Positions 26,579 to 34,606 of a stretch of 46,951 bases of DNA are shown piece after piece. Numbering within the stretch: the stretch's first letter is position 1; every line of letters begins with the position of its first letter. The stretch spans positions 1-46,951 of the forward strand of contig CAYSHM010000025.1 of NCBI GenBank assembly GCA_964430885.1, given 5' to 3'. The notes under the pieces were generated by a model that saw only the letters and a program-made list of their open reading frames with translations, made no database searches and was not told where the DNA came from. The position numbers and the translations under genes were made by a program. This DNA comes from an uncultured archaeon (GTDB lineage Archaea; Thermoplasmatota; Penumbrarchaeia; JASLWR01).

Positions 26579-28567
26579 TTATTCTTTTTCATCCTGGTGA
26601 TCATTCCTTTTTACATCATTGCGCCTTTTTACAAATATCACTGCAACTGCGGTTAGGACAATACTGATAACAACAACCGCTATTATGATACCAGAAGAAC
26701 TGCTCATAAAACCTGCTCCCCCTTGAATTGTCTTCTGGAGGTCCACCTCAACTTCAGAAGGCAAAGAACGGGACACTCCCCTATATGCAACAGCAGTGAG
26801 ATTGGTCTTCATGTTATGAGAACTGCTGACCTCGGCAGACCAGTTCACAAACTGCCCTGGAGATTCATTTGATATGTCCAGGGTGACGGATTCACCCCCC
26901 CCTGAAAGGACAACCTTGTCTATGGTCTGTCCGGATCGGCTCCAGGCCAATCCGCTTACAATGTTCTTCCCGTTCTCAAAGGTATAGTTGGTTATGAAAC
27001 ATTGAATATCTATATCTATACCGCCGATACCAGCAAGGTCCTGGGCCATCTTCACCGCTTTATATCCATCTACTATACCCCATCCAAAATCCCTGTTCCA
27101 AAAGGGGTCGACATCAACCGTGGAAGGTTTTTCCATTCTCATTGCGGTGGCTCTAAGTATTTCTCTTGTGAGAAGAGGTTCCAGATCGGGATTTGCTTCA
27201 AGCATTAATGCTACAACTCCAGCAACCGATGGAGTGGCATATGAGGTACCTGATCCTCTGTTGCCATAGCCGTTCCCTGATGCATCGTCCAGGGGATTGG
27301 AGGAATACTGGCACTGCTGAATGTTGGTCCCTGAGGCTGAGATGTCAGGTTTGAGTTCGTCCACCGGATTGCTGTCCCCGTCATCGGTCCTAGGGCCTCT
27401 GGATGAGTAGTAGGCAACGATATCATCAGTCCTGTTCACTGTATTCCCGTCATCCGTTGCGCCGACAGTTATTGATAGGTCTGATGCACCCATCCCGGTA
27501 AATCCATTGTTGCTGGGCCCGTCGTTGCCGGCGGCCACCACAACATGCACTCCCGCTTCAACGAGTTTGTCAAGGGCCATAGAATATGGGTCCTTTCCAT
27601 CCGACGGCCCCCCGATATCGATTCCCCATGAAAGTGACAATACATCTATTCCCTGGTATTCCCCGCCTCCTGCAGGCCAATTATCATTACGGTGATCAAA
27701 GGCCCACTGGGATCCCTGCAGGGAAGCATCATAAGCATCCTGGAACAGTTCTCCAGGAGCATATCCAATAGCAGTACCTATCCTCAGGTCCACCAATCGG
27801 GCTCCCGGCGCTGAGCCCATGAACTCTCCGGTGGGTGCCCCAGTTCCCATGGCCATTCCAGTACAGGATGTACCATGTCCCTGAATGTCGTCGGCATTGA
27901 AGCTGCCGTCCCTGGGCGTCAGGAAGGTTTTGGGTTTAGATATGTCAGCGCCTCCAAGCCATTTTCCCGATAGCGATGGATGTGCGTCATCCACTCCGGT
28001 GTCCATGACGCATAGAGAAACTCCTTCGCCGGTGTAGCCGAGTTCCCATGCTGTATTCGGGGAGTACTCATCACTTTCCCTTGCTTTGATATTCCTTGTC
28101 TGAACATCCCCGAACCATGTTAACTGGCCAGTATGCCATATTCTAATTTCTTCTGATATACCAGTGATATCCCAAAGGGCCGAAAAACCGGGATGAGATA
28201 TTTCAACTATGCCAAGATCCTGATAATGGCCTATTATTCTAACTCCAGTTTCCTTCAGGGCGACGAGCTTATCCTGATTCCATCCTGATTCCAATAGGCA
28301 AAGACCGTGTTTCCCTTGATCTACCGATATTTCACTTTCCAATATGTCAGAGACCCTGTTGCCGTTCAAGTCCCACCATTTTTCAGAATCATCATGTACA
28401 TCCATTTTGCTGGATTCGGAACCAAGGTATATTTCACTAGTGCCTGCAGTCCTGAAACGGTTTATCACGACATTATTGGAATCAGGAGCCATTACCCATG
28501 GGGACAGACAGAAGCTCAATAGGGCTATTGCAACTAGAAGAGTAGTAGCGTTTTTTTTCAATGACAT
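26579..28567 (-). CDS. Secreted, membrane-anchored S8 (subtilisin-like) serine protease
   Basis: Triad MDTG, GHGT, GTSYATP; AAGNDG oxyanion hole; signal peptide; C-terminal TM followed by KRR. Confidence 0.92.
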   Translation of the reverse strand: MSLKKNATTLLVAIALLSFCLSPWVMAPDSNNVVINRFRTAGTSEIYLGSESSKMDVHDDSEKWWDLNGNRVSDILESEISVDQGKHGLCLLESGWNQDKLVALKETGVRIIGHYQDLGIVEISHPGFSALWDITGISEEIRIWHTGQLTWFGDVQTRNIKARESDEYSPNTAWELGYTGEGVSLCVMDTGVDDAHPSLSGKWLGGADISKPKTFLTPRDGSFNADDIQGHGTSCTGMAMGTGAPTGEFMGSAPGARLVDLRIGTAIGYAPGELFQDAYDASLQGSQWAFDHRNDNWPAGGGEYQGIDVLSLSWGIDIGGPSDGKDPYSMALDKLVEAGVHVVVAAGNDGPSNNGFTGMGASDLSITVGATDDGNTVNRTDDIVAYYSSRGPRTDDGDSNPVDELKPDISASGTNIQQCQYSSNPLDDASGNGYGNRGSGTSYATPSVAGVVALMLEANPDLEPLLTREILRATAMRMEKPSTVDVDPFWNRDFGWGIVDGYKAVKMAQDLAGIGGIDIDIQCFITNYTFENGKNIVSGLAWSRSGQTIDKVVLSGGGESVTLDISNESPGQFVNWSAEVSSSHNMKTNLTAVAYRGVSRSLPSEVEVDLQKTIQGGAGFMSSSSGIIIAVVVISIVLTAVAVIFVKRRNDVKRNDHQDEKE

Positions 28568-28878: not shown

Positions 28879-30342
28879 TCAGTCCAGCATTACCCACTTG
28901 AAACCTTCCTTGAGGTAGGTGTTCATATCCTCGGCTGCAGTCCTGCCTGCGCCCATGGCCTCAATAACGGTGGCCGCTCCAGTCACAATATCGCCTCCGG
29001 CCCATACTCCCTCGACGGAAGTCCTTCCCTTCTTGTCTGTTTCGATATTTCCCCATCTGTTGAGTTTCAGGTCTGGGACCGTAGCAGTAAGAAGCGGGTT
29101 TGCGTTGGAACCAATTGCTATAATGACTAAATCAGTCTCGATCTTGAAATTGGAACCCTCCACCGGGACCGGTCTCCTTCTTCCGCTGTCGTCCGGTTCT
29201 CCTAGCTCCATCTGTATGCATTCCATGTTCTTGACCCATCCGTTCTCATCGGCCTCAAGACCTATGGGATTTGTGAGCAGTTTAAAATCGATCCCTTCCT
29301 CCTCACCGTGCATAATCTCCTCGTCTCTAGCAGGCATCTGTTCTCTGGCCCTTCTGTAAACTATGGTAACATTTGCACCAAGCCTGAGAGCGGTCCTTGC
29401 AGCATCCATGGCCACATTGCCACCTCCGACCACCGTGACGTTCCGCCCTCTCTTGATAGGGGTGTCGAACTCCGGGAACTGGTATCCTTTCATCAGATTG
29501 GATCTGGTCAAAAACTCATTGGCACTGAAAACTCCATTTAGATTTTCACCATCAAGACCAAGGAATCTAGGAGCACCTGCACCGACACCAATGAATATAG
29601 TGTCAAAGCCTTCTTCTTTCTTTAATTCCTCTATGGTAAATAATTTCCCTATAACAGCATTGGTATGCAGCTTGACACCTGCTTCCTGAAGGGCATCTAT
29701 CTCGTATTCCACTATCTCCTTGGGAAGCCTGAACTCGGGAATTCCATACACAAGTACGCCGCCACCCTTGTGAAGAGCTTCAAAAATATGAACTTCATGC
29801 CCCATTCTAGCAAGATCAGCCGCAGCAGTAAGACCTCCGGGACCTGAACCGATTATTGCGGCCTTCTTCCCGGTAGGCTTTTCCTTTTCCATACAGCATT
29901 TGATGTCGGACTTCCTTTCGAAATCCGCAATGAACCTCTCGAGATATCCTATACCCACCGGCGAGTTCTTTCCCTTGCCCATTGCACATACACCTTCGCA
30001 TTGGGTCTCTTGTGGACATACCCTGCCGGTCACAGCAGGCAGAGCATTATCTCTTTTCATCACATTCAATGCTTCCATGAACTCTCCTTTGGCAATAAGA
30101 TCGATAAATTCAGGTATCTTTATCTTTACTGGACAACCCTTTACACACTGGGGGGCTAGGCATAGAAGGCATCGCTTTGCTTCCCTTATTGCTGTTTCAG
30201 CATCGTATCCTAGATTCACTTCCTCAAAATTATTACACCGGACCTTTGGCTCCTGCTCCGGCATACTGTTCCTTTTGGTCTTGAGCTTCTCCCTCATCTC
30301 TGTAGGGGTGGGTCTTTTACCTCTGAATCTGTAATCAGACAT
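28879..30342 (-). CDS. sudA: NfnB/SudA (GltD-like) large subunit of NADH-dependent ferredoxin:NADP oxidoreductase
   Basis: RCLLC..PQC..GCP, GRVCPQETQCE..C, GSGPGG, GGGNVAMD, GGDIVTGAATVIEAMG. Confidence 0.9.
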   Translation of the reverse strand: MSDYRFRGKRPTPTEMREKLKTKRNSMPEQEPKVRCNNFEEVNLGYDAETAIREAKRCLLCLAPQCVKGCPVKIKIPEFIDLIAKGEFMEALNVMKRDNALPAVTGRVCPQETQCEGVCAMGKGKNSPVGIGYLERFIADFERKSDIKCCMEKEKPTGKKAAIIGSGPGGLTAAADLARMGHEVHIFEALHKGGGVLVYGIPEFRLPKEIVEYEIDALQEAGVKLHTNAVIGKLFTIEELKKEEGFDTIFIGVGAGAPRFLGLDGENLNGVFSANEFLTRSNLMKGYQFPEFDTPIKRGRNVTVVGGGNVAMDAARTALRLGANVTIVYRRAREQMPARDEEIMHGEEEGIDFKLLTNPIGLEADENGWVKNMECIQMELGEPDDSGRRRPVPVEGSNFKIETDLVIIAIGSNANPLLTATVPDLKLNRWGNIETDKKGRTSVEGVWAGGDIVTGAATVIEAMGAGRTAAEDMNTYLKEGFKWVMLD

Positions 30343-31177
30343 TCATTTCCACCTCCAGCTGATATTTATCATAAGATATCTTTTCCTCCTCCAGATAGCC
30401 CCTCAACCTGTCCATAAGAAGATCCCAGTTGACAAGATGACCGTCGAATTCAGGTCCGTCAGTACATGTCAGTTTTGTTTTTCCGCCAACCTCAACTCTG
30501 CAGACTCCGCACATGCCAGTAGCATCGATCATGATGGAATTGAGGCTGACCACCGTATCCACCTTGAATGGCTTTGTTGTAAGTGAACAGAATTTCATCA
30601 TAATGGAAGGTCCAATAGCGTAAACCTTTCCGATCCTGTCGCTCTTCATCTCAAGTATCTCCTTGAGGGGTTCAGTCACCAGCCCTTTCCGACCTGCAGA
30701 TCCGTCGTCGGTTGTTATTATGTGCTGGTCGCTTACTTCTGCCATCTTTTCTTCCCAGAAAAGGAGGCTCTTAGATCTGGCACCCTGAATAGTGATGACA
30801 GTGGTACCTGCATTCTTGTATTCTCTGGCGATGGGGAATATGGGTGCAGTTCCAACCCCTCCAGCCACCATTACCACTACGTCGGCCTCCTCGATTTCCG
30901 AATGACATCCCAAAGGTCCTGAAATGCCCAGAAGATTATCACCTACACAAAGCTCACTCAGTTTTGCCGTGGAAGTGCCCACAACCATGTAAACCAGGGT
31001 TACGGTCCCCTTTTGACTGTCCCAATCGGCCAGGGTAAGCGGAATTCTTTCACCTGCATCCTTTGCCAGTACAACCACGAACTGTCCAGCCCGGGCTTTC
31101 TTCGCTATGGCTCTCGCTTCTACCTCTATCTCAAATATGTTCTCGGCCAGTTCCTTTTTTGAGATTATCTTGTGCAT
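30335..31177 (-). CDS. sudB: NfnA/SudB small subunit (FAD, 2Fe-2S)
   Basis: GERIPLT, GPLG, GGVG, DATGMCGVCRV..TC.DGPEFD; overlaps the start of sudA. Confidence 0.9.
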   Translation of the reverse strand: MHKIISKKELAENIFEIEVEARAIAKKARAGQFVVVLAKDAGERIPLTLADWDSQKGTVTLVYMVVGTSTAKLSELCVGDNLLGISGPLGCHSEIEEADVVVMVAGGVGTAPIFPIAREYKNAGTTVITIQGARSKSLLFWEEKMAEVSDQHIITTDDGSAGRKGLVTEPLKEILEMKSDRIGKVYAIGPSIMMKFCSLTTKPFKVDTVVSLNSIMIDATGMCGVCRVEVGGKTKLTCTDGPEFDGHLVNWDLLMDRLRGYLEEEKISYDKYQLEVEMNV

Positions 31178-31480
31178 TTTTGGTCCCCCATTTATTATAC
31201 AAATTTCCTTATTATAGAGAATGATTATTTTTCAAAAAATAATTCAGGTTCAATTTGATAAATAATGTTCGGTTGGGTAAATTTCGAACTATTATATAAT
31301 GTTGTAAGTAAAATTTTATTTAGTATGAAAGTACTTGCCGATTAACATAATATAAGGTATCTTTATAATTTTCTGGATGATTAGGATTGTGAAGTAAAGC
31401 TTAACATATAATTTCATATGCCATACCATCCATATTCCTTTAGGCCTGTATTTGAGAAACAGAACTTAGGGTAATGCATC

Positions 31481-32911
31481 ATGGAAGGGGGAACCTTGGA
31501 CATCGGATTGATAGGTTTGGGGGTAATGGGAGAGAATCTTGTCCTCAATATTGAGGGCAAAGGGTTTACCGTAGGTGTTTATAACCGAACCTCCGGTAAA
31601 ACTGAGGCTTTCATGGAGGATCGGGCAGAAGGAAAGAATATTCACGGGTTTTATTCTCTCTCGGATTTCTGCAAATCATTGAGTGAGCCGAGGAAGGTAA
31701 TGATCCTTGTAAAGGCGGGGGACCCAGTGGACATGGTAATTGAAGGTCTCCTTCCATTCCTTTCGCAAAATGATATTATCATGGACTGTGGGAATTCATA
31801 TTACGAGGACACAAACCGACGGGCTGGCCTTCTGAATAAGAAAGGATTTCATTTCATGGGTATAGGGGTCTCCGGCGGGGAGGAGGGTGCACTGAAAGGC
31901 CCTTCTATAATGCCAGGGGGAAGCGAGGCTGCATGGGCAGAGGTTAAGGATATCCTGTTGTTAATTGCAGCCACCTTTAATGATGAGCCCTGCTGTGGAT
32001 ATCTGGGTCCAGAAGGCGCGGGTCACTTTGTAAAGATGGTCCATAACGGCATAGAGTATGCAGACATGGCTCTTATTGCCGAGGGTTACGACATTCTCCG
32101 GAGGTCAGGAATTGATGCGAAGACCTGTTCAGATATTTTTCGGGTATGGGGTCAGAGGGGACATCTGGATTCTTATCTCATGGATATCACAGCTGACATA
32201 TTGGAGAAAGACGATCCATATACGGAAAATGCTCTTGTGGATATGATATTGGATGAGGCAAAACAGAAAGGGACGGGTCTTTGGACCTCTCTTTCAGCTT
32301 TGAAGATGTTGGTGCCTGCACCGACCATCATAGAGGCGGTGAACCTGAGGATCATATCCAATTTCAGTGATGAAAGATACCAGGCCTGGAAGAATTATCC
32401 CTGCAGTGCAAATGCAGATATGCCCATATATAAGGGCCATACGGAAATTGATGATCTCAAGGAAATAATCCATGATGCACTTCTAGGCGGTAAGATCTGC
32501 GCCTATGCACAGGGTCTGTCAATATTGAAAAGTGCATCAGAGCAGTTCGGATGGGATCTTGATATGTCCATGATAGCAGGTCTATGGAGAAATGGATGCA
32601 TAATAAGAGCTTCACTCCTAGAGGATATCAGAAACGCATATTCCAAGGAACGCAGTCCGGCAAACCTTCTTCTCTCACCTGAATTCATACCAGTAATGGA
32701 CCGGGTATACTTGAGCTGGAAGGAAGCAATAAAATTTGCATTGAATGGGAATATTGCTGTACCTGCCCTCTCCAGCGCATTCAATTATTTCAATTTATAC
32801 CGCTCCCGCCATCTTCCCATGAACCTGGTTCAAGCTCAAAGGGATTATTTCGGAGCTCATACTTACCGAAGGATAGACCGGGAAGGGGATTTTCACACAG
32901 AGTGGTTTTAA
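31481..32911 (+). CDS. gndA: Long-chain NADP-dependent 6-phosphogluconate dehydrogenase (decarboxylating)
   Basis: GLGVMG, YNRT (NADP-type), VSGGEEGA, KMVHNGIEY, QKGTG.WT, W..GCIIR, QAQRDYFGAHTY. Confidence 0.95.
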   Translation: MEGGTLDIGLIGLGVMGENLVLNIEGKGFTVGVYNRTSGKTEAFMEDRAEGKNIHGFYSLSDFCKSLSEPRKVMILVKAGDPVDMVIEGLLPFLSQNDIIMDCGNSYYEDTNRRAGLLNKKGFHFMGIGVSGGEEGALKGPSIMPGGSEAAWAEVKDILLLIAATFNDEPCCGYLGPEGAGHFVKMVHNGIEYADMALIAEGYDILRRSGIDAKTCSDIFRVWGQRGHLDSYLMDITADILEKDDPYTENALVDMILDEAKQKGTGLWTSLSALKMLVPAPTIIEAVNLRIISNFSDERYQAWKNYPCSANADMPIYKGHTEIDDLKEIIHDALLGGKICAYAQGLSILKSASEQFGWDLDMSMIAGLWRNGCIIRASLLEDIRNAYSKERSPANLLLSPEFIPVMDRVYLSWKEAIKFALNGNIAVPALSSAFNYFNLYRSRHLPMNLVQAQRDYFGAHTYRRIDREGDFHTEWF

Positions 32912-32951
32912 GAATTTATAATTTAAAAACAATAATCAGGATAGAGATAAT

Positions 32952-34097
32952 ATGGGGCCATATAAACTTGGAGCCGTTGGATTGGGACATTGGTTTAAAA
33001 GATTACTGTTCTCAATGGACAAGACCTTGTTGACATTAGAAAAGGGAGCGGGAATATTTCCCTATGAAGCATATGACCCGCCTCTGACTGACTTTGGACT
33101 TAAAAGGGAGAACTATTACCAAATAAAACCGGGAGACCCGATTCCTGAAGAATTCTTCGATGGGATTGATGTGGTTCAGATCGCATCTCCGAACCGTTTC
33201 CATCACGAACAGACCATTCAATCCCTAGACCACGGTAAGATAACCATAACCGAGAAAACCTATGGTTCAGACAGGGAGACCTTTCACAAGACCATCGATT
33301 ACATCAGAGAACATGAAGTTGAGAACAAGACCTATGTTCACCTGCACTATCTGAACAAGCAGCCCACTCTTGCTCTTCCAGGGATAGTAAAAAGGATGGC
33401 CAAGAATCACGGTAAGATAATAAGTGCTGTTGGTACCATGTTCGAGGAGGCCAACGATGAGGATATGAGGCGGAGCTGGATTTTCAACAATGCCAACGGC
33501 GGAATATTCATGGACCTAATTCATCCTACAGAGGTTCTGTATGTGGGAACCAAGGCCCGTTTCAAGGAGTGTTTAGATGCTAATCTATACATGGTCAACT
33601 CCAAGATGTGCAGCGATGATCCCACCGGTGTGGAGGTTTGGTACAAGGTTGAAGGCAAGTATTATGCTGATAACGCTATTGCAGCCATCAGAGTTGGGAA
33701 AGGTTTCCCCCATGGATTGAACTACAAGGCCCTTAGATTGACATTTGCCAATGGGACATATCTGGATGTAAAGTTCGAGAACGCATTGATCGAATATACT
33801 TCCAAGAAACGGGGGTCATGGAGGGTGAAGAGACAGACCAATGGAGATGTGGAGGTGCTGGAGAGAGGCGATCCCAGGGGTAAGACTCCATTCGCTCTCA
33901 TGGTTGATGATGTTATAAGAATGATAAAAGGGGAGAATCCTCCGATATCAATAGATCAGATGGAGGAGGTCTTCAATATCCAATGGATGTTCAGGGACCT
34001 CGCCTCCGAGAAAAAGATGATGGGAAGCTGGAACGATATAAGGGAATATATCGGAAATGGCCTGGAAAAGGTGGTAGGGGATCCAGATATGGACTAA
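32952..34097 (+). CDS. Gfo/Idh/MocA-superfamily oxidoreductase with G6PDH-like motifs
   Basis: GAVGLGHW, ASPNRFH, EKTYG...HYLNK, GGIFMDLIHP, IRVGKG; 40 bp downstream of gndA. Confidence 0.75.
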   Translation: MGPYKLGAVGLGHWFKRLLFSMDKTLLTLEKGAGIFPYEAYDPPLTDFGLKRENYYQIKPGDPIPEEFFDGIDVVQIASPNRFHHEQTIQSLDHGKITITEKTYGSDRETFHKTIDYIREHEVENKTYVHLHYLNKQPTLALPGIVKRMAKNHGKIISAVGTMFEEANDEDMRRSWIFNNANGGIFMDLIHPTEVLYVGTKARFKECLDANLYMVNSKMCSDDPTGVEVWYKVEGKYYADNAIAAIRVGKGFPHGLNYKALRLTFANGTYLDVKFENALIEYTSKKRGSWRVKRQTNGDVEVLERGDPRGKTPFALMVDDVIRMIKGENPPISIDQMEEVFNIQWMFRDLASEKKMMGSWNDIREYIGNGLEKVVGDPDMD

Positions 34098-34103
34098 AAT
34101 GTG

Positions 34104-34532
34104 TCAATCGGTAAGGGCTATAGTTATCCTATTTCCGCATTTCAAACAAGTTCCCACTGCTGCCCCCTCATCAAAGAAACCGGGAATTCCATCATTTTCC
34201 TCGATCCGCTCCATATATCCGATTGTCATTGCAATATTCCCGCATTCGCAGGAAATAATGGAGCCTCTTTCCACTTTTCTATGTTCACCTGTGAAACGCA
34301 GGAGTTCTTTTAGTGTCTGGCATTTGAAACATTCACCTGTGATAATCCCCCTGAAATTACCTTTTGTTGAACCCGTATGATGCTCAATGGCCGTCTTGAA
34401 TTCATTTTCTCCGCATATGCTGCATCTGTAGATCTGAAAAATGTGTATGTCATTGGGGAATGCCTTGGAATTGAGGACTCTATCGGCATATTCTCTCAGG
34501 CCTTGGGTATGATCGGTATTTTTATTCTCCAT
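34104..34532 (-). CDS. Small protein with two zinc-ribbon units
   Basis: CSIC, CFKC, CEC, CLKC; RBS GGTGA before ATG 34532. Confidence 0.65.
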   Translation of the reverse strand: MENKNTDHTQGLREYADRVLNSKAFPNDIHIFQIYRCSICGENEFKTAIEHHTGSTKGNFRGIITGECFKCQTLKELLRFTGEHRKVERGSIISCECGNIAMTIGYMERIEENDGIPGFFDEGAAVGTCLKCGNRITIALTD

Positions 34533-34606
34533 TGTTTCACCAGGGATTATCCTGCTCAAAATTATGCTTGGTAAAATATTTATAGTCATCCATCATACCT
34601 ATTACC

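Follow-up and report, generated by a model that had tools for sequence, protein, structure and literature searches.

The classical glucose-6-phosphate dehydrogenase (G6PDH), Zwf, carries the conserved nonapeptide RIDHYLGKE, also seen in the Zwf consensus built here, and in Haloferax volcanii the reaction is reportedly carried out by Azf, an NAD+-dependent G6PDH of the short-chain dehydrogenase/reductase (SDR) type. To our knowledge, this haloarchaeal Azf alone has filled the archaeal G6PDH gap so far. The Gfo/Idh/MocA superfamily includes enzymes that oxidise aldoses at C1, namely Zymomonas GFOR (PDB 1h6a/1h6d), Caulobacter aldose-aldose oxidoreductase (5a02), Azospirillum L-arabinose 1-dehydrogenase (7cgq) and the haloarchaeal xylose dehydrogenase Gfo6, and it also holds NtdC, the glucose-6-phosphate 3-dehydrogenase of Bacillus kanosamine synthesis. 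Here we analyse a gene, called X in the following, in a DNA stretch of 46,951 nucleotides from an uncultured archaeon (Thermoplasmatota; Penumbrarchaeia; JASLWR01; contig CAYSHM010000025.1 of assembly GCA_964430885.1), to whose whole length we refer as the window. As a previous sequence-only reading had noticed, X lies directly downstream of gndA; it starts 40 nt past the gndA stop codon. Its product is probably a glucose-6-phosphate 1-dehydrogenase that uses NAD(P)+ and has the aldose-dehydrogenase fold of the Gfo/Idh/MocA superfamily, and it would replace Zwf in an operon of the gnd-zwf type. The two genes are the following.

32952..34097, + strand: open reading frame of X, ATG start, 381 aa, candidate glucose-6-phosphate 1-dehydrogenase with a divergent Gfo/Idh/MocA fold
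31481..32911, + strand: gndA, long-form decarboxylating 6-phosphogluconate dehydrogenase (6PGDH), 476 aa, matched by TIGR00873, PF00393 and PF03446

The identity of gndA is firm, with 603.4 bits to TIGR00873 (cut-off 426.7), 612.6 to NF006765, 360.8 to PF00393 and 160.4 to PF03446, and it is the sole 6PGD match in its genome. X falls within the Gfo/Idh/MocA superfamily, where it is divergent, and outside Zwf, a placement that follows from the fold ranking and the profile comparisons. The AlphaFold2 model computed from the family alignment (A1, 28 sequences) reached a pLDDT of 93.6 and a pTM of 0.91 and has the two-domain Gfo/Idh/MocA architecture, Rossmann domain plus alpha/beta sheet, instead of the extended SDR fold that characterises Azf. 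Foldseek retrieved Gfo/Idh/MocA sugar oxidoreductases as its best matches (E ~2e-18, TM ~0.7), and in VIA-align the top position was taken by 1,5-anhydrofructose reductase 2glx (Z 32.1, root-mean-square deviation 2.6, 317 residues aligned). C1-oxidising aldose dehydrogenases are also among the nearest solved folds, with Z values of 31.8 for GFOR 1h6a, 31.0 for aldose-aldose oxidoreductase and 29.5 for L-arabinose 1-dehydrogenase. G6PDH came up for the first time at rank 49, with chain 8i37 (Z 24.5 over 348 residues), and this outcome favours the earlier interpretation.

In Pfam, X reached 21.8 bits (E 3.3e-4) for PF01408, short of the gathering score of 24, with a match that extends over residues 69-102 only; of 30 homologues, 11 have a precomputed match to this family. 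NCBIfam returned weak matches only, to levoglucosan, inositol and xylose (Gfo6) dehydrogenases. The profile comparisons were of the same sign as the fold ranking. When A1 was compared by hhalign with 12 classical Gfo proteins, which had been chosen from the A1 profile hits, the probability was 99.85% (E 7.7e-31, 297 columns), vs. 15% (E 0.0018, 124 columns) with nine Zwf sequences and 4.7% with a single one. The 60 listed of the 65 hits (E <= 1) of a profile search of the PDB were all of the Gfo/Idh/MocA type (best E 3.6e-8), with no G6PD chain among these listed matches, and neither Pfam G6PD_N nor G6PD_C matched X at E <= 1. The idea that X is a shortened and divergent member of the Zwf family can appeal to an HYLxK motif at Zwf spacing and to a solved G6PDH that aligns over 348 residues; nevertheless, we rejected it on the Pfam, PDB profile and hhalign results, and with 48 Gfo-type chains ranking above the G6PDH chain the chance that it is correct is close to nil.

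The family to which X belongs is rare, unnamed and archaeal. In 5.8 billion proteins there were 30 relatives with E <= 0.001, which, the window's own protein aside, were 34-46% identical to X and came from archaeal metagenome-assembled genomes (MAGs), where they go by the names 'hypothetical protein' or 'predicted dehydrogenase'. Among 1.84 billion representatives of clusters at 50% identity, a profile search recovered 48 X clusters at E <= 1e-30, beyond which scores drop to generic Gfo/Idh/MocA proteins (1399 matches at E <= 0.001 in all), and a search of the ESM Atlas gave X's own archaeal cluster and otherwise generic Gfo clusters only. No fused forms of X were encountered among longer proteins of 668-2000 aa, which is weak evidence.

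The motifs by which X had first been compared with Zwf were all found where they had been read, i.e., EKTYG at residue 101, followed after 26 residues by HYLNK at 132, then FEE at 164, GGIFMDLIHP at 183 and IRVGKG at 246, with Leu131 at the site of the Zwf Asp. The 26-residue spacing is the same in E. coli Zwf (EKPLG at 146, HYLGK at 177). Invariant across the 28 sequences of the family alignment are G7, G10, G12, H13, W14, E101, K102, H130, H132, Y133, K136, E165, R174, W176, G183, G184, D188, H191 and G251, and K259 is, as K136 and R174, an invariant basic residue. The elements of the protein can be listed as follows.

32970..32993, + strand: dinucleotide-binding loop G7-W14, GAVGLGHW (family consensus GxxGxGHW), after strand 1; G7, G10, G12, H13 and W14 invariant, model strand 4-9 followed by helix 13-21
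33252..33260, + strand: E101-K102-T103, EKP-type motif with the catalytic/cofactor-positioning lysine, aligned to EKP of solved Gfo/Idh/MocA proteins and of Zwf
33339..33359, + strand: H130-L-H132-Y133-L-N-K136, family signature HLHYLxK, in hhalign register with Zwf IDHYLGK
33444..33479, + strand: E165 ... R174-x-W176, in the substrate-binding domain (its first strand and loop), invariant and kept in remoter HYxxK-bearing Gfo-like proteins
33498..33524, + strand: G183-G184-I-F-M-D188-L-I-H191, with the catalytic Asp and His of the Gfo/Idh/MocA pattern GGxxxDxx(x)H/Y; its counterparts in the alignments are GGGMVLDWGVH in PDB 3e18 and RDMxQNH in Zwf
33690..33704, + strand: R247-V-G-K250-G251 (IRVGKG), strand of the beta-sheet domain; G251 invariant, K250 mostly conserved (E, M or I in a few)

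The Zwf-like motifs of X are more than chance. In a weak hhalign register, ITEKT, HLHYLxK, FEE and GGxFMD..IH of X faced VxEKPxG, IDHYLGK, AEE and GxxRDMxQNH of Zwf, and the alignment stopped at column 204, short of IRVGKG. Their description as Zwf-like holds, however, for HYLxK only, since EK(T/P) and GGxxxD..H are generic catalytic motifs of Gfo/Idh/MocA proteins (cf. 3e18), and HYLxK itself is also present in remoter Gfo-like proteins. The nonapeptide of Zwf is not found intact in X, where HLHYLNK keeps His, Tyr and Lys, has Leu131 in place of Asp and lacks the Arg. In Zwf the HYLGK region binds the phosphate of the substrate, and by analogy, as well as by the register, H132, Y133 and K136, perhaps with R174, K250 and K259, may hold the 6-phosphate in X. 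We also infer that the cofactor is NAD(P)+; at Phe36 and Tyr41 the protein of the window deviates from its family, which has Ser as consensus at the former position and Lys in at least 90% of A1 at the latter. A non-catalytic helper similar to OpcA was considered and rejected, because every catalytic residue, like the dinucleotide loop, is invariant in the family.

When set beside the known C1 aldose oxidisers, X shares with them the two-domain fold (Z 29.5-31.8, root-mean-square deviation 2.6-3.1 A, 299-325 residues), the EK(P/T) lysine and the GGxxxD..H/Y pair, and the chemistry, from the aldose C1 to a lactone, would match. It differs from them by a sequence identity of 12-19%, by a PF01408 score below gathering, by HLHYLxK in place of an N/R-rich loop, by a one-residue deletion between Asp and His, by extra C-terminal helices, by the predicted phosphorylation of its substrate and by having a 6PGDH as operon partner. 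With Zwf it has in common the predicted reaction, the slot directly after gnd, a distantly homologous fold (Z 24.5), and EKxxG, 26 residues, HYLxK and the downstream D..H in register, whereas it is about 100-130 residues shorter, has no Pfam G6PD match, carries Leu for the Asp of RIDHYLGK and is nearer to Gfo/Idh/MocA by every measure. The likeness to Azf is one of concept, X being a candidate for an archaeal, non-Zwf supplier of 6-phosphogluconate to Gnd; by description, rather than by sequence, the two are set apart, with a Gfo/Idh/MocA instead of an extended SDR fold and a distribution in different lineages. NtdC, also compared by description, is a precedent for the acceptance of glucose-6-phosphate (G6P) in the superfamily, but it oxidises C3 and works together with an aminotransferase and a phosphatase, and no such neighbours are conserved at X.

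A pointer to the role of X comes from its neighbours. We collected 89 X loci, i.e., 59 genome contigs, 29 metagenome contigs bearing true family members, and the window, of which 80 were counted, the other nine having no upstream DNA; they are not all independent, as some metagenome contigs may duplicate MAG contigs. The 59 genome loci, found with a 12-sequence alignment, belong to species-representative genomes, mostly of Micrarchaeota, in addition to Aenigmatarchaeota, Marsarchaeota and Thermoplasmata-type MAGs. In 49 of the 80 loci, counting short and long forms, a 6PGDH gene lies directly upstream of X on the same strand, so that the linkage to gnd, supposed at first from the window only, is conserved. 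The loci divide as follows.

45 of 80 loci: short-form 6PGDH directly upstream of X, same strand
3 of 80 loci: long-form GndA directly upstream of X (the window, L088 and L100)
1 of 80 loci: 6PGDH fragment at a contig edge, upstream of X
2 of 80 loci: divergent beta-hydroxyacid dehydrogenase directly upstream of X (L085 and L086)
1 of 80 loci: sub-threshold 6PGDH-like gene, divergently oriented to X
1 of 80 loci: short 6PGDH 823 nt downstream of X
8 of 80 loci: divergent 6PGDH/HIBADH-like gene farther upstream of X
19 of 80 loci: no gnd-like gene near X

In the 59 genome loci the gap between the 6PGDH gene and X ranged from -41 to +64 nt, mostly from -4 to +11, and clustering of the neighbours left a single conserved partner, a gene of about 305 aa in 42 loci, with any other cluster present in at most eight and no conserved aminotransferase or phosphatase. 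All seven sampled short-form partners passed the TIGR00872 equivalog cut-off (320-390 bits vs. 297), and the long-form partner of L100 scored 702 bits for TIGR00873. In a quick IQ-TREE phylogeny of 67 family members together with 6 remoter proteins (73 sequences), X of the window was sister to a marine contig with a short-form partner (SH-aLRT 99), and long-form partners occurred in at least two separate places, indicating that X stayed behind a 6PGDH gene through changes from one form of 6PGDH to the other. Two X copies were noted on different contigs of one MAG record set (L051 and L066, isolate FK3.bin85), with gnd upstream of only one of them.

That most of the loci derive from one phylum of related MAGs, and that 19 of the 80 have no gnd nearby, would suit the view that X is an oxidoreductase of a generic kind, which came to lie after gnd by an accident inherited within a single DPANN lineage, without functional coupling. 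The linkage is nonetheless also found in Aenigmatarchaeota, Marsarchaeota, marine metagenome contigs and the Thermoplasmatota genome of the window, it has outlasted changes of the gnd type, X and Gnd occur together in genomes also without being neighbours, and X excludes Zwf; we thus consider such an accident very improbable.

The position taken by X is elsewhere that of zwf. In Gnd-bearing genomes without X, a canonical zwf was found directly downstream of a short gnd on the same strand, both in Micrarchaeota (G560, locus L173) and in Thermoplasmatota (G435, G375, G255 and G231, loci L186-L189), as well as in G145 (G145:C36), and the order gnd-zwf(-pgl) is met also on bacterial plasmids. X hence occupies the zwf position, and it is mutually exclusive with Zwf: G6PD_C was detected in none of 50 X-bearing genomes, nor in the genome of the window (absent in 51 of 51), and in 8 of 14 genomes with Gnd and no X (3 of 7 Micrarchaeota, 5 of 7 from the phylum of the window). 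The Micrarchaeota phylum was sampled with 301 genomes, among which 33 had X and 36 had 6PGD, with both in 29 (28 of 300 without G479, an unpublished genome), X only in 4, Gnd only in 7 and neither in 261; the genomes being related MAGs, these counts are not independent and describe a pattern, not a statistical test. A 6PGD match was present in 42 of the 50 X-bearing genomes. The 401 genomes sampled from the window's phylum contained X in the window's genome only, and 6PGD in eight, the other seven having Zwf next to gnd (five) or neither X nor Zwf (two). In Table 1 of a 2015 survey, a review on NADPH, 6PGDH is given for 27% and G6PDH (EC 1.1.1.49) for 0% of archaeal genomes (PMC4518329); contrary to this tabulated 0%, the canonical Zwf found after gnd in MAGs of Micrarchaeota and Thermoplasmatota indicates that the classical enzyme is present in some archaea. 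X thus shows the genomic coupling expected of a G6PDH class, being linked to 6PGDH and complementary to the other types of G6PDH.

The genome of the window, 91.6% complete, fits with this role. The sequencing runs listed as containing its DNA were four marine-metagenome DNA runs of a single study, with no RNA run among them. Zwf (G6PD_C) was not found in it, as the sequence-only reading would have had it, and gluconokinase of either the GntK or the FGGY type was not found either. The first reading had also reported that no lactonase is present in the window, which is correct for the Pgl/NagB family (PF01182), but one Pgl is encoded elsewhere in the genome, on contig C4 (TIGR01198 129.6 bits, cut-off 124.45), as the single PF01182 match genome-wide. 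A lactonase and a 6PGDH without a recognisable source of 6-phosphogluconolactone leave a gap where a G6PDH would be, and the gene that most plainly fits it is X. In 40 relatives from the same family, class and phylum, the searches for a true X orthologue, for 6PGD and for pgl each gave none, so that X, gnd and pgl look like one acquired pathway.

The same genes bear on whether X might act on unphosphorylated glucose or another aldose, with 6-phosphogluconate arising from the phosphorylation of gluconate. The top folds (GFOR, aldose-aldose oxidoreductase, L-arabinose 1-dehydrogenase and 1,5-anhydrofructose reductase) and the weak NCBIfam matches to xylose 1-dehydrogenase Gfo6 and levoglucosan dehydrogenase would agree with a free sugar. 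Yet the kinase needed was missing from the window's genome and above cut-off in 0 of the 50 X-bearing genomes, a Pgl is present in the former, and the invariant basic residues K136, R174 and K259 accompany a Zwf-like HYLxK, all of which makes a free aldose a clearly improbable substrate.

A different phosphorylated sugar or sugar acid deserves more attention, be it another hexose-6-phosphate, glucosamine-6-phosphate or G6P oxidised at C3 as by NtdC, in which case the partner would be a beta-hydroxyacid dehydrogenase acting on another aldonate phosphate. The X proteins of L085 and L086 are the closest relatives of that of the window (45% identity), and the beta-hydroxyacid dehydrogenase coupled to them upstream passes no 6PGDH cut-off, scoring equally for tartronate-semialdehyde reductase, 3-hydroxyisobutyrate dehydrogenase (HIBADH) and 6PGDH, with none above threshold. 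A clade of X from soil, labelled Thermoplasmata or Methanomassiliicoccales (L050, L055, L062, L089-L098, L103 and L107-L109; matched over residues 4-346, on a long branch), is without a bona fide gnd in its vicinity, and PF00393 gave no match in three of its genomes; in some of its members a 528-aa protein whose core resembles 6PGDH/HIBADH (91 bits for NF007161, with a cut-off of 271) lies 0.7-4.9 kb upstream as the only, divergent partner, and the function may here differ. The HYxxK signature, moreover, is common to many uncharacterised proteins. On the other side, most partners pass 6PGDH equivalog cut-offs, in two forms, X sits in the zwf slot and excludes Zwf, no aminotransferase or phosphatase neighbours are conserved, and the window's genome has a Pgl, for which we know of no substrate other than the product of G6PDH. 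Another substrate, or another carbon, therefore appears unlikely.

Besides the two closest relatives, the soil clade, the 19 loci without a gnd-like neighbour and the relatedness of the genomes counted, further observations weigh against X being a G6PDH. No 6PGD match was found in 8 of the 50 X-bearing genomes, the three soil Thermoplasmata-type ones included. Pgl was above cut-off in 0 of the 50 X-bearing DPANN genomes, where 10 weak hits say nothing either way. In the window's genome a hexulose-phosphate synthase of the ribulose monophosphate (RuMP) type (TIGR03128 233.5 bits, G000:C33:585-1193) lies in a 449-aa open frame, which suggests a fused RuMP-pathway enzyme; X and GndA are on this account not the sole route to ribulose-5-phosphate, and their module is probably an added route yielding NAD(P)H and not the only source of pentoses. 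Eight proteins of the Epimerase family in the same genome received nucleotide-sugar and generic SDR names, none of them being named Azf by the family models scanned, though an Azf may yet be among them. The combination of HYxxK, E..RxW and GGxxxDxxH with K250 and K259 recurs in more distant Gfo-like proteins, which are uncharacterised and not known to be linked to gnd, and the signature alone does not, as a consequence, define specificity for G6P. The substrate is inferred to be G6P, and the activity itself is a prediction drawn from the sequence, the fold model and the genomic context.

These remoter proteins are worth a description of their own. Those numbered P0049-P0160, 320-450 aa long and Gfo-like, keep HYxxK, E..RxW, GGxxxDxxH and the two lysines; several carry EKP and 'QDHYxxK', which look even more Zwf-like than X, and none of these proteins has a curated name or function. 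One of them, P0126 (450 aa), has an N-terminal domain of HPr, the phosphocarrier of the phosphotransferase system (TIGR01003 35.6 bits, below the cut-off of 47.9), fused to a Gfo-like body with DHYLYK, a possible hint at a link with phosphosugars. A broader proposal would hold that X is a true G6PDH, that its HYLxK/E/D..H signature is homologous and not convergent with that of Zwf, that the HYxxK-ERW-GGDH branch preserves intermediates on the way from aldose dehydrogenase to classical G6PDH, and that the whole branch, bacterial members included, consists of sugar-phosphate dehydrogenases; as a whole, this is a speculation we are inclined to doubt.

If X is the G6PDH that we favour, it would oxidise G6P at C1 with transfer of the hydride to nicotinamide, K102, D188 and H191 serving as the usual catalytic set of Gfo-type enzymes. 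The resulting 6-phosphoglucono-lactone would be hydrolysed by the Pgl of contig C4 (in the DPANN genomes its hydrolysis would be spontaneous), and GndA would decarboxylate 6-phosphogluconate to ribulose-5-phosphate.

The arrangement of the two genes would allow their joint expression. The regions before and between them are as follows.

31178..31480, strand not assigned: intergenic region of 303 nt, AT-rich, probable promoter region of gndA-X, with several TATA-like runs read in the sequence
32912..32951, + strand: spacer of 40 nt between gndA and X, AT-rich, AGGA lying some 13 nt upstream of the X start codon

The pair is flanked by a divergent gene upstream and a convergent gene downstream, and no terminator-like site was seen on the + strand of the 40-nt spacer; gndA and X consequently look like a two-gene operon, presumably co-transcribed. 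Its promoter would lie within 31178..31480, a region for which the promoter scan was of the sigma-70 type and not suited to archaea. Upstream, across the 303-nt spacer, an NfnAB-like pair is encoded divergently (28879-31177, - strand), made of a 487-aa GltD-like subunit (Fer4_20 and Pyr_redox_2) and a 280-aa DHODB-type subunit for FAD, NAD(P) and Fe-S, so that two NADP(H)-linked modules face one control region. Farther on the same side, a 662-aa open reading frame (26579-28567, - strand) resembles, from its translation only, a secreted protease of the subtilisin type that has a hydrophobic anchor at its C-terminus. On the other side, convergent with X, a 161-aa Cys-rich protein with several CxxC pairs (34104-34589, - strand) had no family match better than E 0.05.

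The proposal that an unrecognised, non-Zwf dehydrogenase feeds GndA is, in conclusion, supported by the genomic tests, namely linkage, absence of zwf, slot and exclusivity with Zwf, and makes of X a candidate only, albeit a well-supported one, for an additional and independently recruited type of G6PDH. A literature search, limited to papers outside subscription, gave no description of a Gfo-type G6PDH or of this gene pair, and a Micrarchaeota genome study reports complete pentose phosphate pathways as not detected (PMC5864196). As a gene that can be cloned, X offers a concrete candidate for another, independent type of G6PDH in DPANN archaea and in some Thermoplasmatota. Should the prediction be right, a correct annotation would replace 'hypothetical protein' and 'predicted dehydrogenase', X would represent a clean case of in-situ non-orthologous displacement within an operon, and reduced genomes would gain a self-contained module leading from G6P to ribulose-5-phosphate with two NAD(P)H, by which their metabolic reconstructions would change.

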